64,000 bases of DNA from positions 25,017 through 89,016 of the forward strand of contig DAIDAP010000016.1 in assembly GCA_027310565.1 (NCBI GenBank). Reading direction: 5' to 3'. Both the position numbers and the translations under genes were made by a program. Of this stretch, positions 2,060 through 64,000 are shown in pieces. The notes under the pieces are model-generated. The model saw only the letters and a program-made list of their open reading frames with translations. It was not told where the DNA came from and ran no database searches. The stretch comes from Chloroflexota bacterium (lineage in GTDB: Bacteria; Chloroflexota; Limnocylindria; P2-11E). Numbering within the stretch: position 1 is the first letter of the stretch; each line of letters starts with the position of its first letter.

Positions 2060-2205
2060 ACGAAAAAGCGGCGCACCTGAGCGCCGCAGCGAGGTCGCAC
2101 GCGTCTCGACTCCCTACGCTGACATTACTCAGATCAGGTTCTGGGGTCTGCGTTCGTCGCACTCTCAGCGCCGCACCACCCGGCGCTCCCCCGTCGTATG
2201 CGGTT
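2060..2205 (-). ncRNA. TPP (THI-box) riboswitch including expression-platform terminator
   Basis: Minus-strand sequence reads GGGGAGCGCCGGGUGGUGCGGCGCUGAGAGUGCGACGAACGCAGACCCCAGAACCUGAUCUGAGUAAUGUCAGCGUAGGGA. This carries the conserved CUGAGA, ACCC...GAACCUGAUC and GCGUAGGGA elements of the TPP aptamer. It is followed by the hairpin GCGGCGCUCAGGUGCGCCGC plus UUUUU ending 7 nt before the TPK start codon. Confidence 0.8.
2063..2087 (-). terminator. Intrinsic terminator hairpin (riboswitch OFF-state attenuator)
   Basis: The plus strand reads AAAAA (2063-2067) then gcggcgcacctgagcgccgc (2068-2087), so the minus-strand RNA is GCGGCGCUCAGGUGCGCCGC followed by UUUUU. This is a perfect 7-bp GC stem plus U-tract. 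Confidence 0.55.
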
Positions 2206-52587: not shown

Positions 52588-53288
52588 ATCCGCTTTCTGT
52601 TCGTCACGGCGTGATGGAGCAGCGCCGCCGCTTCGCTCCGTCCGCGATCGCGGGCCACGTCGAGCGGCGTCTGGCCCTTCGCGTCGGTCGCCGATGGATC
52701 GGCACCCGCCGCGAGGAGCAGCTGCAGCACGGCGACGCTCCCCGTGAACGCGGCGGTGTGCAGCGGCGTGCCGCCGCTCGCGCTGCGCGCGTTCGGGTCG
52801 GCGCCCCCGTCGAGCAGGAGCCGGACGATGTCCTTCGCCGCGGAGCTCTCGTCGCCGGCGACCGCCGAGTGCAGCGCCGTGAACGCGCCGTCGCGTGATG
52901 CCGGGTGCACGTCGGCGCCGAGCGCGAGCAGCGCGCGCACGGCCTCGGATCGCTTGAAGAACGCGGCGAGGCCGAGCGGGAAGAACCCGTCGCCCGCCAT
53001 CGCGTTCACGACGGACGGATCGCGCTCGGCGAGCTCGCGCACCCGCGCCGCGTCGCCGACGGTCGCGGCCTCGTAGACGTCGAGGTCGGGCCGGTGCGTG
53101 AGGAGAGCGTTCGCGACCTCGGCCTTCCCGTGGTAGTAGGCGAGCAGGAGAGCGGAGGTCCCGTTCTCGTCGCGGGCTCCGAGCAGCGCCGGGTCCGCCC
53201 GCAGCCGACGCTCGACTCCCTCACGGTCGCCGCGCTTGACGGCCTCGAGGAACGCGCCTGTGTCCGCCGCCATGCCGGCAAGTGTCAC
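52584..53288 (-). CDS. Ankyrin-repeat protein
   Basis: Five or six ANK repeats (G-TPLH-AA--GH---V--LL--GAD). Stop overlaps the arginase stop (convergent). Confidence 0.8.
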   Translation of the reverse strand: MTLAGMAADTGAFLEAVKRGDREGVERRLRADPALLGARDENGTSALLLAYYHGKAEVANALLTHRPDLDVYEAATVGDAARVRELAERDPSVVNAMAGDGFFPLGLAAFFKRSEAVRALLALGADVHPASRDGAFTALHSAVAGDESSAAKDIVRLLLDGGADPNARSASGGTPLHTAAFTGSVAVLQLLLAAGADPSATDAKGQTPLDVARDRGRSEAAALLHHAVTNRKRI

Positions 53289-53362
53289 GCAAACGGGGCC
53301 GCGGGATGGACGACGGGCCCTCCGGGCGTCGTCCCGGTCGTACTCTGGCGCCGGGGGAGGTC

Positions 53363-55522
53363 GTGCAGCTCCGCCTCTTCAACACCTTGACGCGCCGCGT
53401 GGAGCCCCTCGAGCCCCTCGTCCGGGGCGAGGTCCGCATGTACACGTGCGGCCCGACCGTGTACCGGCCGGTCCACCTGGGCAACCTGCGCTCGTACCTC
53501 CTCGCCGACTGGCTCCGCCGGGCCTGCGAGCTCGCCGGCCTGCGCGTGACGGCGGTGAAGAACGTCACCGACGTCGGGCACATGCGCCAGGACGCCGTCG
53601 ACCGGGGCGAGGACAAGGTCATCGCCGCGGCGCTCGCGGAGGGCAAGACGCCCATGCAGATCGCCGCCGCCTACGAGGCCGCCTTCCACGAGGACGAGGC
53701 GGCGCTCGGCATCCTCCCGGCGTCGGTGAACCCGCGCGCGACCGAACACGTCCCGGACATGATCCGGATGATCGAGCGGCTCCTCGAGCGCGGGCACGCC
53801 TACGAGCGCGACGGCACCGTGTACTACGCGGTGCGCAGCTTCCCCGGGTACGGCGCGCTCTCGGGCAACGTGCAGGAGGCGCTCCGGCAGGGCGTGCGCG
53901 CCGAGGTCGATCCCGCCAAGCGCCACCCCTCCGACTTCACGCTCTGGAAGCGCGCGGAGCCCGGGCGGATCGCGCTCACCTGGCCCTCGCCGTGGGGCGA
54001 GGGGTACCCCGGCTGGCACATCGAGTGTTCGGCGATGAGCACGCGCTACCTCGGCGAGCGCTTCGACGTGCACACCGGCGGCGTGGACAACGTCTTCCCG
54101 CACCACGAGGACGAGATCGCGCAGTCGGAGGGCGCGCTCGGTCACCGCGTCGTGTCGCACTGGGTCCACGGGCAGCACCTGCTCGCCGACGGCGTGAAGA
54201 TGGCGAAGTCCGCGCGCAACACCATGGAGATCCGCGAGATCCGCGACCTCGGGCTCGACCCGCTCGCCTTCCGCTACCAGTGCCTGCTCACGCGTTACCG
54301 GGCGCGCATGGAGTTCACGCCGGCGGCGCTGCGGCAGGCCGCCGAGGCGCTCGACCGGCTCCGGCAGCGCGTGCGCATGCTCGCGCAGCTTTCGCCCGAG
54401 GCGCCGGCGTCGCCGGAGGCGCGCGAGCGGTGGCTGCGGCGGTTCCGCGAGCGGCTCGCCGACGACCTCGACCTGCCCGGCGCGCTCTCGGCCGCGCACG
54501 CGTGTCTCGGCGATCGCGCGATGAGCGGCCGCGATCGGCTCGTCGCGCTCCTCGACATGGACGGCGTCCTCGGCCTCGGCCTCGCGTCGGTCTCGCGCGA
54601 GCGCGACGAGGCACCCGGCGAGGTCCGCGAGGTCGCGCTCCAGCGCCGCGACGCCCGCGCCGCACGCGCGCTGCGGGCCGCCGACGCGCTCCGGGGGAAG
54701 CTCGACGGATGGCGCGTCGACGACCTCCGCGGGCCGCGCGTGCTCCTCTCGCGCGCCGATCGCCGTCTCGCGCGGCGCGGCCGACGGCGCGTCGCGTCGG
54801 GGAAGGAGCTGCCCGACCGGCGCGGGGACGCGCCGGACCGCGACTGGTCGGTCTGCGTCGTGACGCGCGAGTTCCCCGAGGATCTCGAGCGCTGCGTGCG
54901 CGCGGTGCTCGCCCACGCCCCGGCGTCGACGGAGGTGCTGGTGCTCGACCAGGGCTCGGGCGACGCGGCCGCGGAGCGCGCGCTCACGCTCGCCGCCGAC
55001 CCGCGCGTGCGCGTCGTGCTCGCCGACCGCGACCTCGGCGAGGGCGCGGGGCGCAACGCGCTGCTGCGCATCGCGCGCGGCCGCTCGCTCCTCCAGCTCG
55101 ATCCGTCCGTCGAGATCAGCGGCGACCTGTTCGCCGCGCTCGACGCCGCGCTCGCCGCGGAGGACGTCGGCGTGGCCGGTCCGTGGGGCCTGCGCGCCGT
55201 CGACGGGCTGAAGCGGTTCGACGAGGTCGCCGCGGGCGAGGTCGACGCGGTCCAGGGCCACTGCTTCGCCACCCGCCGCGACCCGCTGCTCGCGATCGGC
55301 GGCTTCGACGAGCGCTACCGCTTCTACCGCAACCTCGACATCGCGACCTCGCTCGCGCTGCGCGAGGTCGGCCTGCGCGCGGTCGCCGCGGGCGCCGGCG
55401 CGGCGGCGCGGCACGCGCACCGTGGCTGGGAGCGGCTCGCGGAGGACGAGCGGGCCAAGCGCAGCCGCCGCAACCACGACCGCATGGTGCGCCGCTTCGG
55501 CGGCGCGGCGGCGCGGTCGTGA
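53363..55522 (+). CDS. cysS: Cysteinyl-tRNA synthetase fused to a C-terminal family-2 glycosyltransferase domain
   Basis: The N-terminal roughly 480 aa is a complete class-I CysRS: Zn ligands (YTCGPT, HIECSAM, HHEDE), KMAKS, an anticodon-binding region, and a C-terminus aligning to E. coli CysRS. The HIGH motif appears as PTVYRPVHLGN. From about nt 54845 a GT2 domain follows (SVCVVTREF...ERCVRAVL...EVLVLDQGSGD...IGGFDERYRFYRNLDIATSLAL). I take the GTG start, which has a GGGGGAGG Shine-Dalgarno sequence; the ORF-track ATG is at 53282. Confidence 0.8.
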   Translation: MQLRLFNTLTRRVEPLEPLVRGEVRMYTCGPTVYRPVHLGNLRSYLLADWLRRACELAGLRVTAVKNVTDVGHMRQDAVDRGEDKVIAAALAEGKTPMQIAAAYEAAFHEDEAALGILPASVNPRATEHVPDMIRMIERLLERGHAYERDGTVYYAVRSFPGYGALSGNVQEALRQGVRAEVDPAKRHPSDFTLWKRAEPGRIALTWPSPWGEGYPGWHIECSAMSTRYLGERFDVHTGGVDNVFPHHEDEIAQSEGALGHRVVSHWVHGQHLLADGVKMAKSARNTMEIREIRDLGLDPLAFRYQCLLTRYRARMEFTPAALRQAAEALDRLRQRVRMLAQLSPEAPASPEARERWLRRFRERLADDLDLPGALSAAHACLGDRAMSGRDRLVALLDMDGVLGLGLASVSRERDEAPGEVREVALQRRDARAARALRAADALRGKLDGWRVDDLRGPRVLLSRADRRLARRGRRRVASGKELPDRRGDAPDRDWSVCVVTREFPEDLERCVRAVLAHAPASTEVLVLDQGSGDAAAERALTLAADPRVRVVLADRDLGEGAGRNALLRIARGRSLLQLDPSVEISGDLFAALDAALAAEDVGVAGPWGLRAVDGLKRFDEVAAGEVDAVQGHCFATRRDPLLAIGGFDERYRFYRNLDIATSLALREVGLRAVAAGAGAAARHAHRGWERLAEDERAKRSRRNHDRMVRRFGGAAARS

Positions 55523-56256
55523 GCCGCGGGCGGCTCGTGCTCTGCGGGTCCGGCGAGTTCACGCCGGCGATGGCCGCCGTCGACCGCGAGATTCTGGACG
55601 GGATCGGCAGGCGCGCGCCGCGGGTCGCCATCGTGCCGACGGCCGCGGGGCTCGAGGACACGCCGCGCGCGTGGGTCGCGATGGGGTCGGAGCACTTCCG
55701 CGCTCTCGGCGCTGAGCCGGTCGGCGTGATGGTGCTCCGGCGCGCGGACGCCGAGGACGCGGCGTGCTGCGACGCGATCGCCGGCGCCGACTGGATCTAC
55801 TTCTCCGGCGGCCAGCCCGGCCACCTCGTGGACACGCTCGCGGGCTCGCGTTTCTGGGACGCGGTCCGCGCGCGGCTCCGCGACGGCGCCGTCCTCGCCG
55901 GCGCGAGCGCGGGCGCGATGATGCTCGGCGGACGGACCTTCGACCCCCGCGGACGCGACGCCGACGGCCTGCCCACGAGCATGGGCATCCGCGAGGGGCT
56001 GGGGGTCCTGCCGGAGGTGATCGTCGCCCCGCACTTCGACGCCATCCCGGAGGCGCGCTGGCGGCACTGGGCGGCGCTGCGGCGCGACGGGGACCGCGTC
56101 CTCGGCATCGACGAGGAAACCGCGCTCGTCGAGCAGCGGGCCGGCTGGAGCGTCCGCGGACGGGGCCGCGTGACGATCGTCGACCGCGGTGGCGCCGGCG
56201 TCGCGCACCCCAGCGGCGCTCGGCTCGACGGCCTCGCGCGCGTCGCCCTTCCCTAG
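55519..56256 (+). CDS. Peptidase S51 family protein (cyanophycinase/dipeptidase-E-like)
   Basis: LVLCGSGEF, IYFSGGQPGHL, nucleophile elbow LAGASAGAMMLG and APHFD His. GTG overlaps the cysS-GT2 stop (GTGA). Confidence 0.75.
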   Translation: MSRGRLVLCGSGEFTPAMAAVDREILDGIGRRAPRVAIVPTAAGLEDTPRAWVAMGSEHFRALGAEPVGVMVLRRADAEDAACCDAIAGADWIYFSGGQPGHLVDTLAGSRFWDAVRARLRDGAVLAGASAGAMMLGGRTFDPRGRDADGLPTSMGIREGLGVLPEVIVAPHFDAIPEARWRHWAALRRDGDRVLGIDEETALVEQRAGWSVRGRGRVTIVDRGGAGVAHPSGARLDGLARVALP

Positions 56257-56266
56257 ACTGGACGTC

Positions 56267-57520
56267 GTGCGCAGCGACCGCCGGCGCCGCGTCGTCGTGA
56301 CCGGCATCGGGATGATCACGCCGCTCGGTTCGACCGTCGAGACGACCTGGCAGGGCATCCTCGCCGGGCGGAGCGGGATCGGCCCGATCACGCGCTTCGA
56401 CACGAGCGGGCTCGAGACGACCATCGCGGGCGAGGTCCGCGACTTCGACCCGACGCTCTACATGGATCGCAAGGAGATTCGCCGTGCGGACCGCTTCGCG
56501 CAGCTCGCCGTCGCGACCGCCGGCCAGGCCCTCGCCGACGCGTCGCTCGCGATCACGCCCGAGAACGCGCCGCGCGTCGGGGTTGCGTTCGGCTCGGGCA
56601 TCGGCGGCGTGAGCACGCTCGTCGACAACATCCTCGCGCACGCGAAGGATCCTCGGAAGGTCTCGCCGTTCATGATCCCGATGATGATCATCGACATGGC
56701 CGCGGGCGAGATCGCGATGAAGTACGGCGCGAAAGGCTCGAACATGGCGCACGTGTCCGCATGCGCCTCGAGCGCGCACGCGATCGGCGAGGCCGCCGCG
56801 ACGATCGGCCGCGGCCAGGCCGACGTCATGCTCGCGGGCGGGTCGGAGGCCGGGCTCATCAAGATCTCCATCGCCGCCTTCAACCAGGCGCGGGCGCTCT
56901 CGACCCGCAACGACGATCCGGCCGGAGCCTCGCGCCCGTTCGACCGCGACCGCGATGGCTTCGTCTTCAGCGAGGCGGCCGGCTGCCTGGTGCTGGAGGA
57001 GCTCGAGCACGCGCGCTCCCGCGGCGCGCGCATCATCGCCGAAGTGATCGGCCACGGCATGTCGGCGGACGCGTACCACATCACCGCGCCGGCGGAGGGC
57101 GCCGAGGGCGCGGTGCGCGCGATGCGCATGGCGATCGCGGACGCGGGCGTCGCCGCGAGCGACGTGGACTACATCAACGCGCACGGCACGTCGACCCAGG
57201 CGAACGACGGCTCCGAGACGGCGGCGATCAAGACCGTCTTCGGGAAGCACGCGTACGAGCTCGCGGTGTCCTCGACGAAGTCCATGACCGGCCACACCCT
57301 CGGCGCGGCCGGCGCGATCGAGGTGATCTTCTGCGTGCTCGCGATGCGCGACGGGATGCTTCCGCCCACGATCAACCAGCACACCCCCGACCCGGAGTGC
57401 GACCTCGACTACGTGCCGAACGCCGCGCGCGCCGCGCGCGTGGACGTGGCGATGTCAAACTCGATGGGCTTCGGCGGGCACAACGCGTCGCTCATCATGC
57501 GCGCGGGAGCACTCACGTAG
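56267..57520 (+). CDS. fabF: 3-oxoacyl-ACP synthase II
   Basis: Active-site ACASS Cys, HGTST and GHTLGAAG His motifs, and MGFGGHNASL. Confidence 0.9.
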   Translation: MRSDRRRRVVVTGIGMITPLGSTVETTWQGILAGRSGIGPITRFDTSGLETTIAGEVRDFDPTLYMDRKEIRRADRFAQLAVATAGQALADASLAITPENAPRVGVAFGSGIGGVSTLVDNILAHAKDPRKVSPFMIPMMIIDMAAGEIAMKYGAKGSNMAHVSACASSAHAIGEAAATIGRGQADVMLAGGSEAGLIKISIAAFNQARALSTRNDDPAGASRPFDRDRDGFVFSEAAGCLVLEELEHARSRGARIIAEVIGHGMSADAYHITAPAEGAEGAVRAMRMAIADAGVAASDVDYINAHGTSTQANDGSETAAIKTVFGKHAYELAVSSTKSMTGHTLGAAGAIEVIFCVLAMRDGMLPPTINQHTPDPECDLDYVPNAARAARVDVAMSNSMGFGGHNASLIMRAGALT

Positions 57521-57534
57521 CCGATCCGAAGAAG

Positions 57535-57978
57535 CTGCGCGCCGACGCGAACGCGCTCGTCACCGAGCTGCTCGCCCGTCTCGACGCGGGCGACGTCCGC
57601 GACCTCGAGGTCCGCCGCGGCGGCCTCCGGGTGAAGGTGAGCCGCGAGCTCGCGCCGGTGCCGCAGCCGTTGGTGCCCGCGCCGCAGCCGCGTCCCGTGG
57701 CGATCCCGGCCGCGCCGGCCGAGCCGGCGAGGATCGAGTACCCCACGGTGAACGCGCCGCTCACCGGCATCTTCTACCGGTCGGCCACGCCGCAGGCCGC
57801 GTCGTTCACGCAGGTGGGATCGATCGTGTCGCCCGGAGACGTCATCGGGCTCATCGAGGCGATGAAGCTCTTCAACGAGATCCGCTCGCAGGCCGCGGGC
57901 AAGGTGCGCCGGATCATGGCCGAGAACGGCCAGCTCGTGCGCGCCCACCAGCCGCTCATCGAGCTGGAGCCGCTGTGA
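57535..57978 (+). CDS. accB: Acetyl-CoA carboxylase biotin carboxyl carrier protein
   Basis: Canonical biotinylation motif EAMKLFNEI and a Pro/Ala-rich linker. There is no ATG/GTG/TTG in frame near the N-terminus. The N-terminal region aligns from ...DPKKLRAD, suggesting a CTG or other start overlapping the fabF 3' end. Confidence 0.8.
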   Translation: MRADANALVTELLARLDAGDVRDLEVRRGGLRVKVSRELAPVPQPLVPAPQPRPVAIPAAPAEPARIEYPTVNAPLTGIFYRSATPQAASFTQVGSIVSPGDVIGLIEAMKLFNEIRSQAAGKVRRIMAENGQLVRAHQPLIELEPL

Positions 57979-58148
57979 CCGAGCCGACGTGCGTCGTCTG
58001 CAAGCAGCCGCTCGGTGCGGGCGGGGTGCGCCTGCGCTACGAGGGGGCGCTCTACGCGTTCGACGGCGAGCGCTGCAAGCGCATCTTCCAGGAGAACCCC
58101 GACCGCTGGCTCGACGCCCACGGCGGCGTGCTCGACCAGCCGCGTTAG
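57975..58148 (+). CDS. YHS-domain small metal-binding protein (57 aa)
   Basis: CVVCKQP...YEGALYAFDGERCKRIFQENPDRW matches the YHS/TRASH-type pattern. GTG overlaps the accB stop (GTGA). Confidence 0.5.
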   Translation: MTEPTCVVCKQPLGAGGVRLRYEGALYAFDGERCKRIFQENPDRWLDAHGGVLDQPR

Positions 58149-58212: not shown

Positions 58213-59397
58213 ATGCGCACCGTCGTCGCCCTGACGGCCGCGGCGCTCGTCGTGGCGCTCGTCGTGCTCACGCTCGCGCCGGCGCCGCCCGTCGCCGAGC
58301 CGTCGCCGTCCGCAACGGAGGCCGCCGCCGCGACGCCATCCGTCGGCGCGAGCCCGAGCGCGTCGCCGACGCCGGCCGCGCGCCGCGCGATCACGGTGAT
58401 CCCCGTGTCCGCCGTCCCGAGCGACCATCGCTACACCTTCGGCTGGGGCCGCGTCCTGCTCCTCGACCTCGAGGCGCGCCGTGCGCGCGAGGTCGTGCGG
58501 CTGGACGACCTGGCGCAGTCGCCGGATCAGGTCGTGGACGCGATGAGCGCTTCGCGCGACGGGAAGACGCTGGTGCTGCTCTTCAGCGTCACGCCGGAGC
58601 GCCGCGCGATCGTCCTCGTCCGGCCGGTCACCGGCGAGACGCGGACGCTCGTCGAGGGACCCGATCTCGAGGGGCCGCTGCTCTCGGATGACGGAGCGCG
58701 CCTCGCGTTCGCGCGGCGGTCGGACGACGCGGCGAGGAGCGGGATCTGGGTCCTCGACGTGACGGCGGCGGGCGCGGCAGCCGGCCGGCTCGTCGCCGGC
58801 GAGCCCGGACGCGGCGGACCACCGGCCAGCCCGCTGTCGTGGTCGCCGGATGGCCGCTCGCTCGTCGTGCGGGTGGGGCCCGCGGACGGCCCGCTGGTGG
58901 CGATCGTGGACGCCGCGGCCGGGGAGACGCGGTTCGACGCGGGCGGGCCCGGCTTCGCCGGCGGCCGGGCGGTGGTCGTGGGTCCGGGCTCCGGAGCGCG
59001 GTGGCGCGACGGACCTCTCCTGACCTGGACGACGGTCCGCGTGGCCGCGTACGACGTCGCGTCGGGCGCGACGCGCGTGCTCTACGAGCCTCCGGCGGGC
59101 CGGCGCATCGTGGGCGCCGCGGCGCGGCCGGGGTCGTCGGAGTACGCCGTGGTCGAGCGCGAGCTCGCCGCCGGTCCCGGCTCGCCGATCGCGATCTCGC
59201 TGCGCGGCGGCGCCGCGGGACCGCGACTCCTGGCCGAGAACGGCTTCATCGGCGCGGACCTGTGGTGGTCTGCCGACGGCGCGCACCTGTACACGACCGT
59301 CGGCGGAGACGACTCGACCGGCGCCGTGCGCGACCTCATCGGGCAGGGCGGGATGCCCTACTGCCTGCGCGGGGGCGAGCCGCCGAGCTGCACGTAG
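58213..59397 (+). CDS. Membrane-anchored beta-propeller protein (TolB/PD40-like repeats)
   Basis: N-terminal TM helix and a Pro/Ser/Ala linker. Repeated SxDGxxLxF / WSPDGRSLV motifs. Confidence 0.6.
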   Translation: MRTVVALTAAALVVALVVLTLAPAPPVAEPSPSATEAAAATPSVGASPSASPTPAARRAITVIPVSAVPSDHRYTFGWGRVLLLDLEARRAREVVRLDDLAQSPDQVVDAMSASRDGKTLVLLFSVTPERRAIVLVRPVTGETRTLVEGPDLEGPLLSDDGARLAFARRSDDAARSGIWVLDVTAAGAAAGRLVAGEPGRGGPPASPLSWSPDGRSLVVRVGPADGPLVAIVDAAAGETRFDAGGPGFAGGRAVVVGPGSGARWRDGPLLTWTTVRVAAYDVASGATRVLYEPPAGRRIVGAAARPGSSEYAVVERELAAGPGSPIAISLRGGAAGPRLLAENGFIGADLWWSADGAHLYTTVGGDDSTGAVRDLIGQGGMPYCLRGGEPPSCT

Positions 59398-59422
59398 CGG
59401 CGGTCGCTGAAGACGAGCCTGG

Positions 59423-60694
59423 TCAGAGCCCGAGCAGCGTCACCGCCACCAGGGCGAGCGAGAGCGCCGACGCGACGACGGCGATGGCCGCGCCCGCGAC
59501 GGACGAGAGGCGCCCGTTGCGCTGGTCGCCCATGACGCTCCGGTCGCCGGCGAGCCGCAGGATGAACGCGAGCACGATCGGCAGCAGCAGCCCCTGCACC
59601 GCCTGCGACACGAGGATGAACTGGATGAGCAGGCCCTCCGGAAAGAGCACGACCGCGACGCCGCCCGCGACGAGCAGCAGCGTGAAGAGCCCCATGAACA
59701 CCGGCGCGTCGCCGAAGTCGTGGCTGATGCCGGACTCCCAGCCGAAGGCCTCGCAGATCGCGTAGCTCGTCGACAGCGGCATCACGAGCGCGGCGAGCAT
59801 CGACGCGCCGAAGAGGCCGACGCCGAAGAGGAGCTCCGCGCCGCCGCCGGCGAGCGGCTCGAGCGCCCGCGCGGCGTCCGCGGCCCTCTCGACGAGGATC
59901 CCGTTCGGGAAGAGGACCGCGGCGGTCACGACGACCATGAAGAGCCCGTTCAGGCCGGTGAGGACCGCGCCCATGAGCACGTCGACCCGGGTGAACCGGT
60001 ACGCGTCGCGGTCGATGCCCTTGTCGACGATCGACGCCTGTATGTAGAACTGCATGTACGGTGTGATCGTCGTCCCGACGAGCGCGACCGCCGCGACGAG
60101 CGCGCCCTGCGCCGACGGCAGCGTCGGCACGACGAGCCCCTGCAGCGCGGCCGACCAGTCCGGCCGCACGACGAACGCGGCGACCGGGTAGGCGAGGAAG
60201 GCCAGCACGAGCACGAACAGCGCGCGCTCGACGACGCGGTAGGTGAAGAACACGACCAGCACCCAGATGACGAGCCCGGCGATCGGGACCGAGACGATGG
60301 AGGGGACGCCGAGCAGCCCGAGGCTCGCGGCGACGCCCGCGTACTCCGCGGCGACGTTCACTCCGTTCGCGACGAGCAGCGCGGCCATCGCCAGGATCGT
60401 CCAGCGCACGCCGAAGCGCTCGCGGATGAGGTCGGAGAGCCCCTTGCCGGTGACCGCGCCCATGCGCGCGCACATCTCCTGGATGACGACGAGACCGACC
60501 GTGGAGACGAGCAGCAGCCACAGCAGCGCGTAGCCGTAGCGCGCGCCGACGGCCGAGTAGGTCGTGACGCCGCCGGCGTCGTTGCCGGCGAATCCGGTGA
60601 TGATGCCCGGCCCCATGACGGCGAGGAACGCGAGCAGCGTGGCGCGGCGGCCACGGGCGGTCTGGCGGACCGTCGTCCCCACGCCGCCGATCAC
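59423..60694 (-). CDS. NRAMP (SLC11) family transporter with non-canonical metal-binding motifs (NRMT-like, predicted Mg2+ rather than Mn2+/Fe2+)
   Basis: 423 aa with about 11 TM helices. The TM1 region GPGIITGFAGNDAGGVTTYSAVGARYGY aligns to MntH GPGFLVAVGYMDPGNWATS...YGY, so DPGN becomes DAGG. The TM6 region GTTITPYMQFY aligns to GATVMPHNLY, so MPH becomes TPY. ATG forms an ATGA overlap with the stop of the upstream gene. Confidence 0.85.
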   Translation of the reverse strand: MIGGVGTTVRQTARGRRATLLAFLAVMGPGIITGFAGNDAGGVTTYSAVGARYGYALLWLLLVSTVGLVVIQEMCARMGAVTGKGLSDLIRERFGVRWTILAMAALLVANGVNVAAEYAGVAASLGLLGVPSIVSVPIAGLVIWVLVVFFTYRVVERALFVLVLAFLAYPVAAFVVRPDWSAALQGLVVPTLPSAQGALVAAVALVGTTITPYMQFYIQASIVDKGIDRDAYRFTRVDVLMGAVLTGLNGLFMVVVTAAVLFPNGILVERAADAARALEPLAGGGAELLFGVGLFGASMLAALVMPLSTSYAICEAFGWESGISHDFGDAPVFMGLFTLLLVAGGVAVVLFPEGLLIQFILVSQAVQGLLLPIVLAFILRLAGDRSVMGDQRNGRLSSVAGAAIAVVASALSLALVAVTLLGL

Positions 60695-61944
60695 CGCGCG
60701 ATCGACCGGAGCGACCTCTTCTTCCAGCCGCGCGGGAGCATGAGCTCGACGACGTCGTCGATCGTGACGGTGCCGATGAGCCTGCGCCGCGCGTCGACGA
60801 CGGGCAGGGCGAGCAGGTCGTACTTCGCGATGAGCGAGGCGACCTCCTCCTTGGGCGTGGTGGCCTCCACCTTGAGCACGTGCGGGTTCATGACCTGCGC
60901 GAGCCGCTCGTCCGGCTTCGCCACGACGAGGTCACGCAGCGACACGACGCCCTCGAGGCGCCCCTCGGCGTCGACGACGTAGAGGTAGTACGCGAGCTCG
61001 GGATCGGGCTTCAGCGCGCGCAGGCGCTCGATGGCCTGCGCGGCCGTCTGCTCGGCGGCGAGCGAGACGACGTCCGTGGTCATGATCCCGCCGGCGGAGT
61101 CCTCGGGGTAGGTGAGGAGCTCCTCGACGTCCTCGGCCTCCTCCTTCTCCATGAGGTCGACGAGCTCCTCGCGGCGCTCTTCGGAAAGGTCCTGGAGCAG
61201 ATCGGCGGCCTCGTCCGGCGCCATCTCCTCGAGGATGTCGGCGGCGCGCTCCTCGGTGAGGTCGCTGATGATCGCGGCCTGCATCTCGGGCTCGACCTCC
61301 TGGAGCGCCTCGGCGGCGGTCTCGACGTCGAGCTGCTCGAACACCGCCCGGCGCTCGTCGGCGGCCATCTCCTCGACGATGTCCGCGATGTCCGCGGGGT
61401 GGAGAAGCGCGAGCTTCGTGCGCGGGACGGTGACGCGGACGTTCGCCTCGGGCGCGTCGAGCGGCTCCACCAGGTGCCACGGGATGATCCCGCGCGGGAG
61501 CTTGCGCCCCGCGATGCGCACGACGCGCTCGGCGAGGGGTTCGGCGCCCACGCGCCGCAGCAGCCCGCGCAGCCCGACGTCCGCGCCGACCAGCCGCAGC
61601 TGTCCGTCCACGTCGGAGAGCTGGAGGTCGTTCACGCGCACGATCTTCGCGCCGTGCGTGTCGACGACCTGTTTGTCGAGCAGGTCGCGCGCCAGGCGCA
61701 GGGCCTCGGGCGGGAGCGCCGCGTCCTGGAGCGAGTCGAGCCGGGCGCGCAGGCGCAGGTGCCCGATCTCCTGCGCGAGGTCGCTCCAGCGGAGCACCCG
61801 CTCGCCGGCGCCGGTGGCGAGGATCGCCCACTGGATGGCGGGGAACTGCCCCTGCGGGACCACGGCCAGGTCCTTCAGGGTCCCGACCTCGTTCCCGTTG
61901 GGCTCGATGACGCGGCGGTGCTGAATCTCGGAGAGGTACGGCAT
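60691..61944 (-). CDS. Soluble PRC-barrel + MgtE-N + tandem-CBS protein (MgtE cytoplasmic sensor module without the transmembrane pore)
   Basis: N-terminal PRC-barrel-like repeats, an acidic MgtE_N helical domain (ADIADIVEEMAADE...ILEEMAPDEAADLL) and two CBS motifs (IMTTDVVSL..., VVSLRDLVV...). It ends right after CBS2. An alternative TTG start lies at 62007. Confidence 0.8.
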   Translation of the reverse strand: MPYLSEIQHRRVIEPNGNEVGTLKDLAVVPQGQFPAIQWAILATGAGERVLRWSDLAQEIGHLRLRARLDSLQDAALPPEALRLARDLLDKQVVDTHGAKIVRVNDLQLSDVDGQLRLVGADVGLRGLLRRVGAEPLAERVVRIAGRKLPRGIIPWHLVEPLDAPEANVRVTVPRTKLALLHPADIADIVEEMAADERRAVFEQLDVETAAEALQEVEPEMQAAIISDLTEERAADILEEMAPDEAADLLQDLSEERREELVDLMEKEEAEDVEELLTYPEDSAGGIMTTDVVSLAAEQTAAQAIERLRALKPDPELAYYLYVVDAEGRLEGVVSLRDLVVAKPDERLAQVMNPHVLKVEATTPKEEVASLIAKYDLLALPVVDARRRLIGTVTIDDVVELMLPRGWKKRSLRSIAR

Positions 61945-62016
61945 CGGTCGTTCGGGCGCAAGGGTACCGCTCTTCGCGCTCGTCTCCTCGGCCGTGATGT
62001 GGGACAATCAAGACCC

Positions 62017-62877
62017 ATGTCGCCATCCGCCGACGCCGGACTGCGTGTCCGCGCCTTCGCCGACCAGGCCGTGGCCGCGGCGCTCGACGCCGACTGGCCC
62101 CGCGCCGCCGAGCTCAACGGCAAGATCCTGGAGACCGCGCCCGACGACGTCGAGGCGCGAAACCGGCTGGGCCGCGCGCTCCTCGAGCAGGCCAGGCTGG
62201 ACGAGGCCAGGGCCGCGTTCGCCGAGGTGCTGAAGGCGGAGCCCTACAACGCGATCGCCCTCCGCGGCCTGCAGCGCGTCACGACGCTGCTCGAGCACAA
62301 GGCCAAGGCCGTCGCGACCGCCACCAAGACCCAGCCCCGCCTCTTCATCGAGGACATGGGCAAGACCGGCATCCTGCGGCTCATCAACCCGGCGCCGCCG
62401 CACATCCTCTCGCGGTACAGCCCCGGCGCCGAGTGCGAGCTGCGCGAGCAGGAGGGCCTGCTCGCCGTCCACGCGAGCGACGGTGCGCTCGTCGGCTTTC
62501 TCGAGCCGAAGGTCGGGCGCCGGCTCATCGACCTCATCCGGACGGGCAACCGGTACGTCGTCGCGCTGGTGAGTAACGACACGCAGAACGCCCGCGTTGC
62601 CATCCGTGAGGTCTTCCAGAGCGCCGACAACGCCAGCCGGATCTCGTTCCCCGGGCACCACCGGCCGGCGGAGACCAAGGAGCGCGCCTACATCAAGGGG
62701 AACTTCTTCCGGTTCGGTGCCGAGGTGGACGACGAGTCCGAGCTCGGCGAGGCCGGCGAGGAAGGGGAAGAGGCCGCGTCGCCCGGCGAGGAGCTGCTCG
62801 AGGAGGCCGAGTCGGCGGAGGAGCCGCTGGCCGTCGAGAGCGACGAGGACGACGCGGAGGACGGCGAGGACGAGTAA
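62017..62877 (+). CDS. TPR-repeat protein with acidic C-terminal tail
   Basis: TPR-like helices (NGKILETAPDDVEARNRLGRALLEQARLDEARAAFAEVLKAEPYN) and a terminal stretch of about 60 residues that is roughly 40% Asp/Glu. Confidence 0.65.
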   Translation: MSPSADAGLRVRAFADQAVAAALDADWPRAAELNGKILETAPDDVEARNRLGRALLEQARLDEARAAFAEVLKAEPYNAIALRGLQRVTTLLEHKAKAVATATKTQPRLFIEDMGKTGILRLINPAPPHILSRYSPGAECELREQEGLLAVHASDGALVGFLEPKVGRRLIDLIRTGNRYVVALVSNDTQNARVAIREVFQSADNASRISFPGHHRPAETKERAYIKGNFFRFGAEVDDESELGEAGEEGEEAASPGEELLEEAESAEEPLAVESDEDDAEDGEDE

Positions 62878-62889
62878 GGGGTGAGCTGA

Positions 62890-64000
62890 GTGAGGCGGCG
62901 AGGTTGGGGAGCGGCACCGGCGGTCCCACTCCTCGCGCTCGTCGTCGCTCTTCTCGTGGCGGTCTCGTGCTCGCCCGCGCCGTCCCGACGGATCCCGGCG
63001 ACGGACATCGCCGACGCGCGCCCCTTCGCGCGCTCCATCGCCGACGTCCTCATGACGTTCTCCGCCTACGACTACGCGGTCGTCGGCGGCCTCACCGACG
63101 CCGGTGTCCGCGTGGTGAGCCCGGACCGTTACGCGCAGGTCGTGCGCGTGCAGGCCCAGGCCATCGCGGACGAGACCACCAAGATCGTCGCCAGCACCGC
63201 GAGCGCGGCCGGACCGGTGCGCGACCGGCTCGTCACGCTCGCCGACGCCATCGGTGATCTGCGCACCGACGCGCTCCTGTACGCCGATGGGCGGGATCCG
63301 GAGCTCCTCGCGCGCGTGTTCGCCGACATCGAGCGCGGATGGACCCTGCTGCGCGAGCTCGACGCGCTGCTCAAGGACGACGCGGCACTCGACGCGGCCA
63401 TCGCACGCGGCACCTCGTTCAAGGCGGTCGTCCAGGCCTCGCCGCGCTTCGTGCTCACCGTCGGCCCGTTCGGCTCGGAAGCCGAGGCCGCCGCGGCGGC
63501 TCCGAAGGTCGGCGTGGGCGCCGTCGCCGCGACGGTCGCGCCGTTCGTCGTCCGCGCCACGTTCGAGGACAGGGCGAAGGCCGACGCCGCCGCCGCCGCC
63601 CTCGGCGCGCAGCGGCTCACCGGCATCGTGACCCAGGAGCTGGCGTACGGCTTCCAGCGCGGCGGCGCGACGCCCGACGCGGAGCTGTGGCGCGAGCCGG
63701 CGCGGATCATCGACACCACCGCCAAGTCGCGCAAGATCGCGCTGTCCGACGACGGCGGCTGGGTCGTCACCGGCTCCGACGACGGCTGGGCCGTGGTCTT
63801 CGACCCGCAGAACCGGCAGACGGCCATGCCGCTCATGCCCGCGGGCATGTCGGCGCTCGGCATCGACGACGACGGGAAGTTCTTCGTCGCCGGCGGGCAG
63901 AAGCTCGCGTTCTTCTTCCTTCCCGCGGGCCCGTTCCTCGGGCAGAGCGTGCGGCTCAACAACGTCATCAGCCAGCTCATCTTCGTGCCCGGCGTCGTCG
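62890..64000 (+). CDS. Lipoprotein with tandem SPOR-like domains and a C-terminal beta-rich region (3' end outside window)
   Basis: Not in the ORF track because it has no stop inside the window. GTG start, signal plus lipobox LLVAVSCS. Two SPOR-like segments (FVLTVGPFGSEAEAAAAA, FVVRATFEDRAKADAAAAAL), then DDGGWVVTGSDDGWAVVFD. Confidence 0.6.
   Translation, partial: MRRRGWGAAPAVPLLALVVALLVAVSCSPAPSRRIPATDIADARPFARSIADVLMTFSAYDYAVVGGLTDAGVRVVSPDRYAQVVRVQAQAIADETTKIVASTASAAGPVRDRLVTLADAIGDLRTDALLYADGRDPELLARVFADIERGWTLLRELDALLKDDAALDAAIARGTSFKAVVQASPRFVLTVGPFGSEAEAAAAAPKVGVGAVAATVAPFVVRATFEDRAKADAAAAALGAQRLTGIVTQELAYGFQRGGATPDAELWREPARIIDTTAKSRKIALSDDGGWVVTGSDDGWAVVFDPQNRQTAMPLMPAGMSALGIDDDGKFFVAGGQKLAFFFLPAGPFLGQSVRLNNVISQLIFVPGVV

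Follow-up and report, generated by a model that had tools for sequence, protein, structure and literature searches.

The minus strand of the window, by which we mean the whole 64,000-nucleotide stretch that was analysed, carries an operon of two genes that belongs to the published nrmT type. In it, a gene for a soluble protein that by sequence is a free-standing homologue of the cytoplasmic sensor of MgtE (here, the partner) precedes a gene for a transporter that sequence comparison places in the NRAMP family's NRMT branch, and not with MntH. We have very little doubt that the pair is an operon of an NRMT and an MgtE-like partner. The explanation that fits it best, to which we give a probability of roughly 0.55, is that the partner serves as a Mg2+-responsive brake on the NRMT. 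Pairings of this sort have been in print since 2014 and occur widely among bacteria, and the pair is an ordinary further member.

Results

The locus and its gene junction

Both genes lie on the minus strand, the partner gene upstream and the transporter gene downstream (Table 1); the first-pass annotation had placed all the main features correctly and had left the strand unsaid. It had also described a translational overlap reading ATGA. The partner stop codon does overlap the transporter start, by 4 nt, but the junction reads GTGA, and it is in the closest genomic relative (L004) that ATGA stands at the homologous position, in a junction that is otherwise near-identical. The ATG at 61944 is well supported as the partner start, both by an identical 417-aa database protein (P0001) and by residues 2-5 (PYLS), which are invariant among close homologues; gene callers report the same open reading frame on two other contigs. 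Database searches return homologues of the partner and of the transporter in their thousands, and the pair is therefore not a product of chance.

The operon promoter presumably lies in the divergent intergenic region, where no match to the sigma-70 consensus was found, a result of little weight at 72% G+C. The source is uncultured and has about 72-73% G+C, and the closest homologues are labelled Chloroflexota / Limnocylindria. The coding sequence of the transporter contains one terminator-like site where chance would give 0.3, which is uninformative at 72% G+C. Rfam also gives a weak ybhL match (61292-61358, plus strand, E 0.24), which falls antisense within the coding sequence of the partner and was set aside as due to chance.

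Table 1. Features of the partner-transporter locus (window positions).
Feature	Position	Strand	Remarks
NRMT-type NRAMP/SLC11 transporter gene	59423..60694	-	423 aa; Pfam Nramp
TM6 metal-site motif T208-T-I-T-P-Y213	60056..60073	-	Canonical A-x-x-M-P-H; MAFFT with E. coli MntH
TM1 metal-site motif D39-A-G-G42	60569..60580	-	Canonical DPGN; codons GAC GCC GGC GGC; MAFFT
GTGA overlap	60691..60694	-	Transporter GTG start over partner TGA stop; read from the sequence
Partner ("sensor") gene, soluble MgtE-like	60691..61944	-	417 aa; ATG start; TGA stop 60691-60693
Basic C-terminal tail LPRGWKKRSLRSIAR (residues 403-417)	60694..60738	-	In place of the acidic MgtE plug helix
CBS pair (residues 284-402)	60739..61095	-	Pfam CBS, two stretches; D376, D397, E400
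MgtE_N domain (residues 181-282)	61099..61404	-	Pfam PF03448, full length of model; E212, D244, D248
PRC-barrel-like module 2 (residues 84-170)	61435..61695	-	About 22-residue insert (VDVGxRGLLRRLG...); weak Pfam match and hhalign
PRC-barrel-like module 1 (residues 1-80)	61705..61944	-	Profile A4 matches PDB PRC barrels
Divergent intergenic region, 72 nt	61945..62016		Between partner gene and TPR-repeat gene
TPR-repeat gene	62017-62877	+	Neighbour across the 72-nt divergent region

The transporter groups with EleNRMT

The transporter matches the Pfam Nramp profile (PF01566) with 321 bits over profile positions 1-356 of 357, and scores far below the cut-offs of the MntH families (138 against 430 bits for NF001923, 77 against 272.5 for TIGR01197). 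Its match to the Eggerthella lenta transporter EleNRMT (7QIA/7QIC; Ramanadane et al. 2022, eLife 11:e74589) reaches 357 bits for 7QIA (E 1.6e-105), against at most 113 bits for canonical and other solved Nramps, with 45% identity over about 400 residues compared with 24-28% to MntH, DraNramp and 10ky. It also groups with EleNRMT, apart from these three, in 83 of 100 bootstraps of a neighbour-joining tree, a simple Kimura-distance tree in which the three are the only canonical outgroups and NRAT is not represented.

The metal-site motifs point the same way. The changes that the first-pass annotation had aligned by eye, from DPGN to DAGG and from A-MPH to T-TPY, were reproduced by MAFFT alignment with E. 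coli MntH (ATIMPH against TTITPY), and its reading of the transporter as NRMT-like and outside the MntH clades agrees with the motifs, scores and tree. With canonical transporters (E. coli MntH, DraNramp, ScaDMT) the window protein has in common the LeuT-type Nramp fold family and the TM1 aspartate; it differs from them in having DAGG for DPGN and TxxTPY for AxxMPH, and by analogy with EleNRMT it would be expected to be uncoupled from H+. EleNRMT itself has DAGG on TM1, identical to the window protein, and TTIAPW on TM6, and the two share the first TM6 threonine and the loss of the methionine and of the TM6 histidine. They differ at the second TM6 position, threonine in the window protein and alanine in EleNRMT, both of which fall within TxxA/T, and after the proline, where tyrosine stands in place of tryptophan. 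The passages of the 2022 paper (PMC8806188) that define NRMTs give the consensus DxxG-TxxA/T, and the window transporter has both parts of it, DxxG on TM1 with the asparagine ligand lost and TxxT on TM6 with the methionine lost. Those on transport describe EleNRMT as carrying Mg2+ and Mn2+ but not Ca2+, with no H+ coupling, and by this analogy the window transporter is predicted to import Mg2+, and Mn2+ too.

The partner resembles the cytosolic part of MgtE

In order from the N-terminus, the partner has two PRC-barrel-like modules, then MgtE_N and a CBS pair, and it ends in a basic tail. Pfam recognises MgtE_N (102 bits), two CBS domains (74 bits) and PRC (32.2 bits, cut-off 21.2), and finds no match to the MgtE membrane domain, such that the first-pass description of an upstream MgtE-type sensor devoid of transmembrane segments is borne out. 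The protein covers only positions 24-251 of the 450-position TIGR00400 mgtE model (203 bits, cut-off 232.75), and its alignment to Thermus thermophilus MgtE is confined to the cytosolic part (E 5.9e-46 to the cytosolic domain; 2yvx residues 45-275 in the chain's own numbering, N-terminal tag included), from which it follows that it ends before any membrane domain. Compared with T. thermophilus MgtE (2YVX/2ZY9; 2YVY), the partner has in residues 175-402 a counterpart of the N domain and CBS pair, at about 40% identity, and its chain stops 15 residues past the CBS pair, lacking the plug helix and the five-helix membrane domain with its pore aspartate (D432). The partner further differs in its roughly 175 extra N-terminal residues, which hold the two PRC-barrel-like modules, and in being a separate polypeptide beside a transporter of unrelated fold. 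The best Foldseek match is 2yvy (E 1.7e-20). An AF2 model built from 47 close homologues has a mean pLDDT of 61.6, with values mostly above 80 in the CBS region and under 50 for the greater part of the N-terminal 175 or so residues (the PRC region), and it superposes on MgtE with an rmsd of about 15 A, which reflects uncertain inter-domain geometry.

The tandem PRC-barrel N-terminus is a probable addition to the MgtE unit, predicted from profiles. A profile of module 1 built from 55 orthologous segments (A4) finds, among PDB entries, PRC-barrel proteins and the PRC barrel in the H subunit of photosynthetic reaction centres (best E 1.7e-4); module 1 of the window protein alone scores 13 bits against Pfam PRC. 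Module 2 reaches about 19 bits by itself and 32 in the context of the whole protein, Pfam PRC is matched by it in 12 of the 55 orthologues, and its profile (A5) gave no significant match in the PDB, such that its assignment comes from weak Pfam matches together with hhalign to module 1 (probability 91.8%, E 7.5e-7 between the two profiles). Compared with known PRC-barrel domains (reaction-centre H subunit, YlmC/YmxH, RimM), whose profiles match these N-terminal modules, those of the partner stand in tandem, the second with an insertion, and are fused to an MgtE_N-CBS unit. The modules may act as a dock onto a membrane protein.

The acidic ligands of MgtE sites Mg4-Mg7 are kept in the window partner. 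In the 2yvy/2yvx alignment, E212, D244 and D248 correspond to E59 (Mg7), D91 (Mg4) and D95 (Mg6) of the T. thermophilus protein, and D376, D397 and E400 to D226 (Mg5), D247 (Mg4) and D250 (Mg5), with the sites assigned as in Maruyama et al. 2018 (PMC5882242). Of 55 partners drawn from many phyla, 48 conserve the residue at the D91 position, 53 that at D95 and 50 that at D247, and these Mg2+ ligands of the N/CBS interface are the most conserved residues of the partner family; the D226 position (Mg5) is asparagine in 40 of the 55. In the tail, K408/K409 stand at the positions of MgtE E258/D259, ligands of Mg2 and Mg3, and the partner lacks both of these plug-helix sites, through which sensing is relayed to the MgtE pore. 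Partners of many phyla end in a similar LPxxW[KR][KR]R... tail.

The pairing recurs across phyla

A locus search with an alignment of 16 NRMT sequences (A2; an alignment of 51, A1, was rejected as too diverse) found at least 598 related transporter loci in GTDB species genomes. We examined 80 genome loci from many phyla, most of which carry the pair. Among the 76 with enough upstream sequence to judge, 58 show the partner gene as the immediate upstream neighbour of the transporter gene in the same orientation, a set that covers Acidobacteriota, Chloroflexota, Bacillota, Nitrospirota, Desulfobacterota and Planctomycetota, among others; in 15 loci of the survey the NRMT lacks a partner gene in its vicinity. 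The pairing is thus not unique to this genome, the point on which the first-pass annotation had asked for a neighbourhood survey, and its breadth supports a functional linkage but equally shows the arrangement to be ordinary. An exact ATGA overlap occurs in 10 of the 80 loci.

An M-box riboswitch precedes the partner gene in 6 of 16 scanned loci (L020, L021, L023, L030, L032 and L057), a link between the entire operon and Mg2+; related operons of this kind occur in Bacillota and Dormibacterota. Rfam searches found no M-box (RF00380) in the window, either at E <= 1 over 58500-63500 or at the gathering threshold over its full length, and none in its closest relatives (L004, L014, L015 and L022); the 72-nt intergenic region is shorter than the 169-position M-box model. 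Partner and transporter distances correlate in a mirror-tree comparison (r = 0.62, with no control gene from the same genomes), a value that shared phylogeny would yield by itself and that is therefore uninformative. A Rosetta-stone search returned no reliable partner-transporter fusion protein; the two candidates with CBS and Nramp in one chain (P0315 and P0385) were fragments with aberrant, frameshift-like stretches and were not used.

Discussion

The passages of Shin et al. 2014 (PLoS Genet 10:e1004429, PMC4072509) that deal with nrmT genes report that a gene for MgtE's cytoplasmic N-terminal domain adjoins most of them, show operons of an mgtE fragment and nramp behind M-box riboswitches, and suggest the M-box as a marker of a Mg2+-specific nrmT subset. 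The operons that they describe, including Ca_c0685 of C. acetobutylicum and Acp2976/Acp2977 of A. capsulatum, share gene order, operon arrangement and an NRMT-like branch with the window pair. The partner is a single gene in the window and is split in two in C. acetobutylicum, and in having no M-box the window is like A. capsulatum and unlike the M-box-preceded operons. The partner appears in those passages as a small MgtE-fragment protein, with no mention there of PRC barrels or a basic tail. The partner is not brought up in the MgtE-mentioning passages of the 2022 EleNRMT paper (PMC8806188), and among papers open without subscription we found no literature on it beyond those of 2014 and 2022.

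In the mechanism that we favour, the NRMT, with a metal site enlarged by D-x-x-G on TM1 and T-x-x-T on TM6, would import Mg2+ and Mn2+ without proton coupling, as EleNRMT does, and translational coupling through the GTGA junction would favour coordinated expression of partner and transporter. Cytoplasmic Mg2+ would be bound by the partner at the acidic N/CBS-interdomain sites kept from MgtE, and binding would alter its conformation, as in MgtE. The partner, attached to the transporter's cytoplasmic side by its PRC barrels, its basic tail or both, would then cut uptake under ample Mg2+. Such a brake would be needed because an NRMT importer would be uncoupled and driven by the membrane potential. 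A feedback hypothesis had already been put forward by Shin et al., who in their remarks on the MgtE fragment speculate on cytoplasmic feedback regulation or chaperone activity (PMC4072509). We hold Mg2+-dependent feedback gating by the partner to be about an even proposition. Against it stand the A. capsulatum pair, Acp2976/2977, whose co-expression did not further improve Mg2+ rescue in the experiments described in that paper, as well as the lack of an M-box in the window, the absence of Mg2 and Mg3, the frequent asparagine at the D226 position and the 15 loci without a partner. A more specific version, in which partner and NRMT form a stoichiometric complex, with the tandem PRC barrels and basic tryptophan-bearing tail docking in place of the plug helix and an MgtE-type switch gating a LeuT-fold carrier in trans, is put forward tentatively, at somewhat less than even odds. 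Were it true, the null co-expression result of 2014 would be explained, as the assay sought better rescue and not protection from overload.

Other explanations of the pair differ mainly in what the transporter carries and what the partner does. The transporter could mainly import Mn2+ or another transition metal, with a partner that senses Mn2+ or something else in place of Mg2+. The A. capsulatum NrmT, which likewise has a partner and no M-box, gave full rescue of a mutant in Mn2+ uptake and needed millimolar Mg2+ to rescue one in Mg2+ uptake, and in the relevant passages Shin et al. considered that it probably acts mainly on Mn2+, despite the partner gene (PMC4072509); the window too is without an M-box, and EleNRMT also carries Mn2+. 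Yet the methionine that favours soft transition metals is gone and the site matches that of the Mg2+-transporting EleNRMT, related operons in Bacillota and Dormibacterota lie behind M-boxes, and the acidic residues kept in the partner are those that bind Mg2+ in MgtE, and we regard this explanation as unlikely. We consider it similarly improbable that the partner does not gate at all and is instead a metal chaperone or buffer, reads adenine nucleotides (the energy state) through its CBS pair, or controls assembly or stability of the transporter. This would agree with the chaperone activity offered as an alternative in the 2014 paper and with its sole co-expression test, in which no effect was visible; the CBS domains of MgtE bind ATP, the MgtE-ATP structures 5x9g and 5x9h are among the matches, and many CBS-pair structures among the Foldseek matches contain bound adenine nucleotides. 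Its weakness is that the most conserved partner residues are the N/CBS-interface ligands, which in MgtE form a conformational switch and not a simple buffer (PMC5882242), and that tight operon coupling favours coordinated expression, as would suit a complex.

Two further accounts of the locus are much weaker. The first-pass annotation had seen in it an undescribed regulatory architecture, a hybrid of two Mg2+ transport families, and its observations on the domains were themselves correct. The claim to novelty is refuted by Shin et al., whose pertinent passages already contain the gene pair, its prevalence, the M-box association and the feedback hypothesis (PMC4072509), and the number of related transporter loci given above tells against it as well; we give it almost no credence. 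Still less probable is a chance juxtaposition of an unrelated NRAMP gene with the decayed remnant of a full-length mgtE, for which the missing membrane domain is the one argument. The length of about 417 aa and the sequence are kept in thousands of homologues, the architecture, including PRC modules and basic tail, persists across phyla at 30-73% identity, and the survey refutes the idea by the recurrence of the adjacency.

As a discovery, the locus in itself carries little weight, being one more uncultured member of a pair known since 2014. The survey nevertheless offers three handles on partner function, namely the consistent PRC-PRC-MgtE_N-CBS2 architecture, the conservation of N/CBS-interface ligands across phyla, and the basic tryptophan-bearing tail that replaces the plug helix. 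If the proposed complex exists, the partner would count as the first regulatory subunit to be demonstrated for an SLC11 transporter. If the partner gates an uncoupled SLC11 carrier, the same Mg2+-sensing module would have been reused on two unrelated membrane folds.

Soluble partner, retained MgtE ligands and basic tail

The gene upstream of the transporter had been described in the first-pass annotation as encoding PRC, MgtE_N and two CBS domains and as stopping before any transmembrane domain, and Pfam, the NCBIfam mgtE model and alignment to the PDB agree with this description. In Pfam, the protein scores 102 bits for MgtE_N, 74 bits for a pair of CBS stretches and 32 bits for PRC, where the cut-off is 21.2; of the 450 positions of the NCBIfam mgtE model it covers only 24-251, and its score of 203 lies below the cut-off of 232.75. 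Residues 175-402 of this partner protein align to Thermus thermophilus MgtE (TtMgtE; phmmer against the PDB, E 5.9e-46) over its cytosolic N and CBS domains, and as the protein ends 15 residues past the CBS pair it lacks a membrane domain. The AF2 model is confident over the MgtE_N-CBS region, with which a Foldseek search ranked MgtE cytosolic domains first, and unreliable (pLDDT below 50) over the N-terminal ~175 residues. These consist of two PRC-barrel-like modules. Searched against the PDB, a module 1 profile built from 55 orthologues matches the PRC barrel of reaction-centre H subunits, along with further PRC-barrel proteins (best E 1.7e-4), and the profiles of modules 1 and 2, the latter with an insertion of about 22 residues, match each other (hhalign 91.8%, E 7.5e-7). 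This region is common to the partners of every full-length locus, and is therefore a family trait. Although a longer frame could begin at a TTG at 62007, the evidence supports the ATG: the database contains an identical 417-aa protein, close homologues do not vary at residues 2-5 (PYLS), and the YLS motif at the start is kept across phyla. The divergent TPR neighbour is also found on the two further contigs in which the partner protein is identical.

Genes and RNA elements in the window
Feature	Position	Strand	Description
Partner gene	60691-61944	-	417 aa, ATG start
Transporter gene	59423-60694	-	423 aa, first codon GTG; full-length Pfam Nramp domain, 321 bits
TPR neighbour	62017-62877	+	286 aa; weak TPR repeat region, highly acidic C-terminal tail
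CysRS-GT2 ORF	53282-55522	+	746 aa; class I cysteinyl-tRNA synthetase catalytic domain, 308 bits, residues 44-354; C-terminal family 2 glycosyltransferase domain, 41 bits, residues 523-632
Peptidase S51 gene	55516-56256	+	cyanophycinase / dipeptidase E-like, 74 bits
ORF upstream of YHS ORF	56761-57978		presumed biotin carboxyl carrier protein
YHS ORF	57975-58148	+	57 aa; YHS (putative metal-binding) domain, 30.2 bits, just below the 30.3 cut-off
TPP riboswitch (RF00059)	2094-2202	-	61.7 bits, gathering score 54.3

The Mg2+ sites of MgtE were placed on the partner using the assignments of Maruyama et al. 2018 (PMC5882242) and the PDB alignment to TtMgtE, the site numbering being checked against four isoleucine labels in the same paper. 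In comparison with MgtE, the partner retains the ligands of the N/CBS interface that drive the Mg2+-dependent closing movement, but lacks the plug helix, which in MgtE passes this movement on to the pore; PRC barrels and a basic tail are additions of its own. The plug-helix positions of MgtE fall in this tail, LPRGWKKRSLRSIAR, and an LPxxW[KR][KR]R-like tail is found again in partners of many phyla.

Mg2+ ligands of TtMgtE and the corresponding partner residues
TtMgtE residue	Site	Partner residue	State in 55 partners
E59	Mg7	E212	acidic in 45
D91	Mg4	D244	Asp in 48
D95	Mg6	D248	Asp in 53
D226	Mg5	D376	mostly Asn (40)
D247	Mg4	D397	Asp in 50
D250	Mg5	E400	acidic in 37
E258 / D259	Mg2 / Mg3 (plug helix)	K408 / K409	mostly basic or absent

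Transporter identity

By sequence, the transporter is an NRAMP-related Mg2+ transporter (NRMT). Among all solved structures its best match is Eggerthella lenta NRMT (EleNRMT, 7QIA; 357 bits, 45% identity), followed by 10ky (113 bits) and DraNramp (about 97 bits), with identities of 24-28% to these two and to MntH, and its 138 bits against the MntH family model fall short of the cut-off of 430. A distance tree places it among NRMT-like representatives with EleNRMT, split from MntH, DraNramp and 10ky in 83/100 bootstraps. The altered TM1 and TM6 site, originally aligned by eye to E. coli MntH, was recovered with MAFFT (MntH from NC_000913), DPGN / ATIMPH of MntH standing against DAGG / TTITPY. 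EleNRMT has DAGG / TTIAPW, and the NRMT signature is DxxG-TxxA/T (Ramanadane et al. 2022, PMC8806188). The reported overlap of the two genes is real, but reads GTGA rather than ATGA; the closest genomic relative (L004, transporter 72% identical) carries ATGA at this position, and its junction is otherwise nearly the same, so that the start within the overlap is conserved.

Distribution, gene linkage and riboswitches

Both proteins have thousands of homologues, chiefly from metagenomes of soil and sediment; those most similar are labelled Chloroflexota / Limnocylindria. We surveyed one genome per GTDB species and examined the best 80 of at least 598 related transporter loci. The pairing is widespread: an MgtE_N-CBS gene lies directly upstream on the same strand in 58 of these 80 and elsewhere in the locus in 3, is absent within about 4 kb in 15, and could not be judged in 4 with insufficient upstream sequence; the exact ATGA overlap occurs in ten. 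The 58 belong to Acidobacteriota, Chloroflexota, Bacillota, Desulfobacterota, Nitrospirota, Planctomycetota, Dormibacterota and several candidate phyla. Within the same best 80, the partner is present in 50/60 loci with the DAGG motif but in 1/8 with a DPGG variant, a difference that may be phylogenetic or may mark a functional subtype. The DPGG / TTITPW transporters (loci L036, L047, L048, L051, L066, L070, and also L060 and L071), which keep the Pro of DPGN, are mostly from Terriglobia. Odd taxonomic labels, suspected to be binning errors or transfers, are carried by L004 (DATJHW010000067.1, a contig of 70% G+C binned as 'Candidatus Saccharimonadales') and by another pair, L039 (JAZDHH010000023.1), in a MAG labelled Nanoarchaeota. 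Two metagenomic representatives, P0315 and P0385, combine a CBS domain and, after it, an Nramp domain in one chain and could be partner-transporter fusions; as both are fragments with frameshift-like stretches, an artefact of assembly is no less probable.

An M-box lies directly upstream of the partner gene in 6 of 16 Rfam-scanned loci (five in Bacillota, of which one has two in tandem, and one in Dormibacterota). In a Pelosinus MAG (L023), two complete M-box aptamers arranged in tandem (2034-2211 and 2352-2523, + strand; 163 and 161 bits) stand upstream of the operon. Rfam scans found no M-box in the window or its four closest relatives, and the divergent intergenic region upstream of the partner gene, at 72 nt, is too small for one. 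The TPP riboswitch was the only Rfam family over threshold across the whole window.

Other genes in the window

The CysRS-GT2 fusion recalls, we presume, the MshC and MshA steps of low-molecular-weight thiol synthesis, and the Peptidase S51 gene starts 7 nt before its end. The YHS ORF, by coordinates, overlaps the end of its upstream ORF by 4 nt; on the strand opposite to the NRMT gene, it lies about 1.3 kb past that gene's 3' end.

Proposed mechanism and precedent

In MgtE and CorA, a brake is supplied by cytoplasmic Mg2+-sensing domains. This is also stated by Shin et al. 2014 (PMC4072509), and EleNRMT is an uncoupled Mg2+/Mn2+ transporter (Ramanadane et al. 2022, PMC8806188). An importer powered by membrane potential and gradient alone needs such a brake. 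The analysis establishes the domain content, the conservation of the ligands, the linkage of the genes and the M-box association, and from these we infer the substrate, the contact between partner and transporter and the direction of regulation: in the likeliest mechanism, the partner would sense cytoplasmic Mg2+, dock on the NRMT via its new parts, the PRC barrels and basic tail, and inhibit it in trans.

There are two main rival explanations. The window transporter may act mainly on Mn2+, like the NrmT of A. capsulatum, which rescued a Mn2+-uptake mutant; co-expression of the A. capsulatum pair did not further improve Mg2+ rescue (Shin et al. 2014, PMC4072509). Alternatively, the partner may be a chaperone or buffer, or a nucleotide reader via its CBS pair, rather than a gate; Shin et al. 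speculated on either cytoplasmic feedback regulation or chaperone activity for the MgtE fragment.

The same authors named the NrmT group, noted that a gene for the MgtE N-terminal cytoplasmic domain neighbours most nrmT genes, and showed mgtE-fragment/nramp operons behind M-box riboswitches. The central novelty claim of the first-pass annotation, an undescribed regulatory architecture of an MgtE sensor acting in trans on an NRAMP-fold transporter, therefore fails, as this architecture was already published by Shin et al. 2014 (PMC4072509). We found no later study of the partner in the searchable literature, and the MgtE passages of the 2022 EleNRMT paper (PMC8806188) treat MgtE only as an unrelated transporter. 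Apart from ATGA in place of GTGA, the observation in the annotation is correct; its functional reading is reasonable, and is identical to the 2014 proposal. The window pair adds one new and unremarkable member to a known type of two-gene module.
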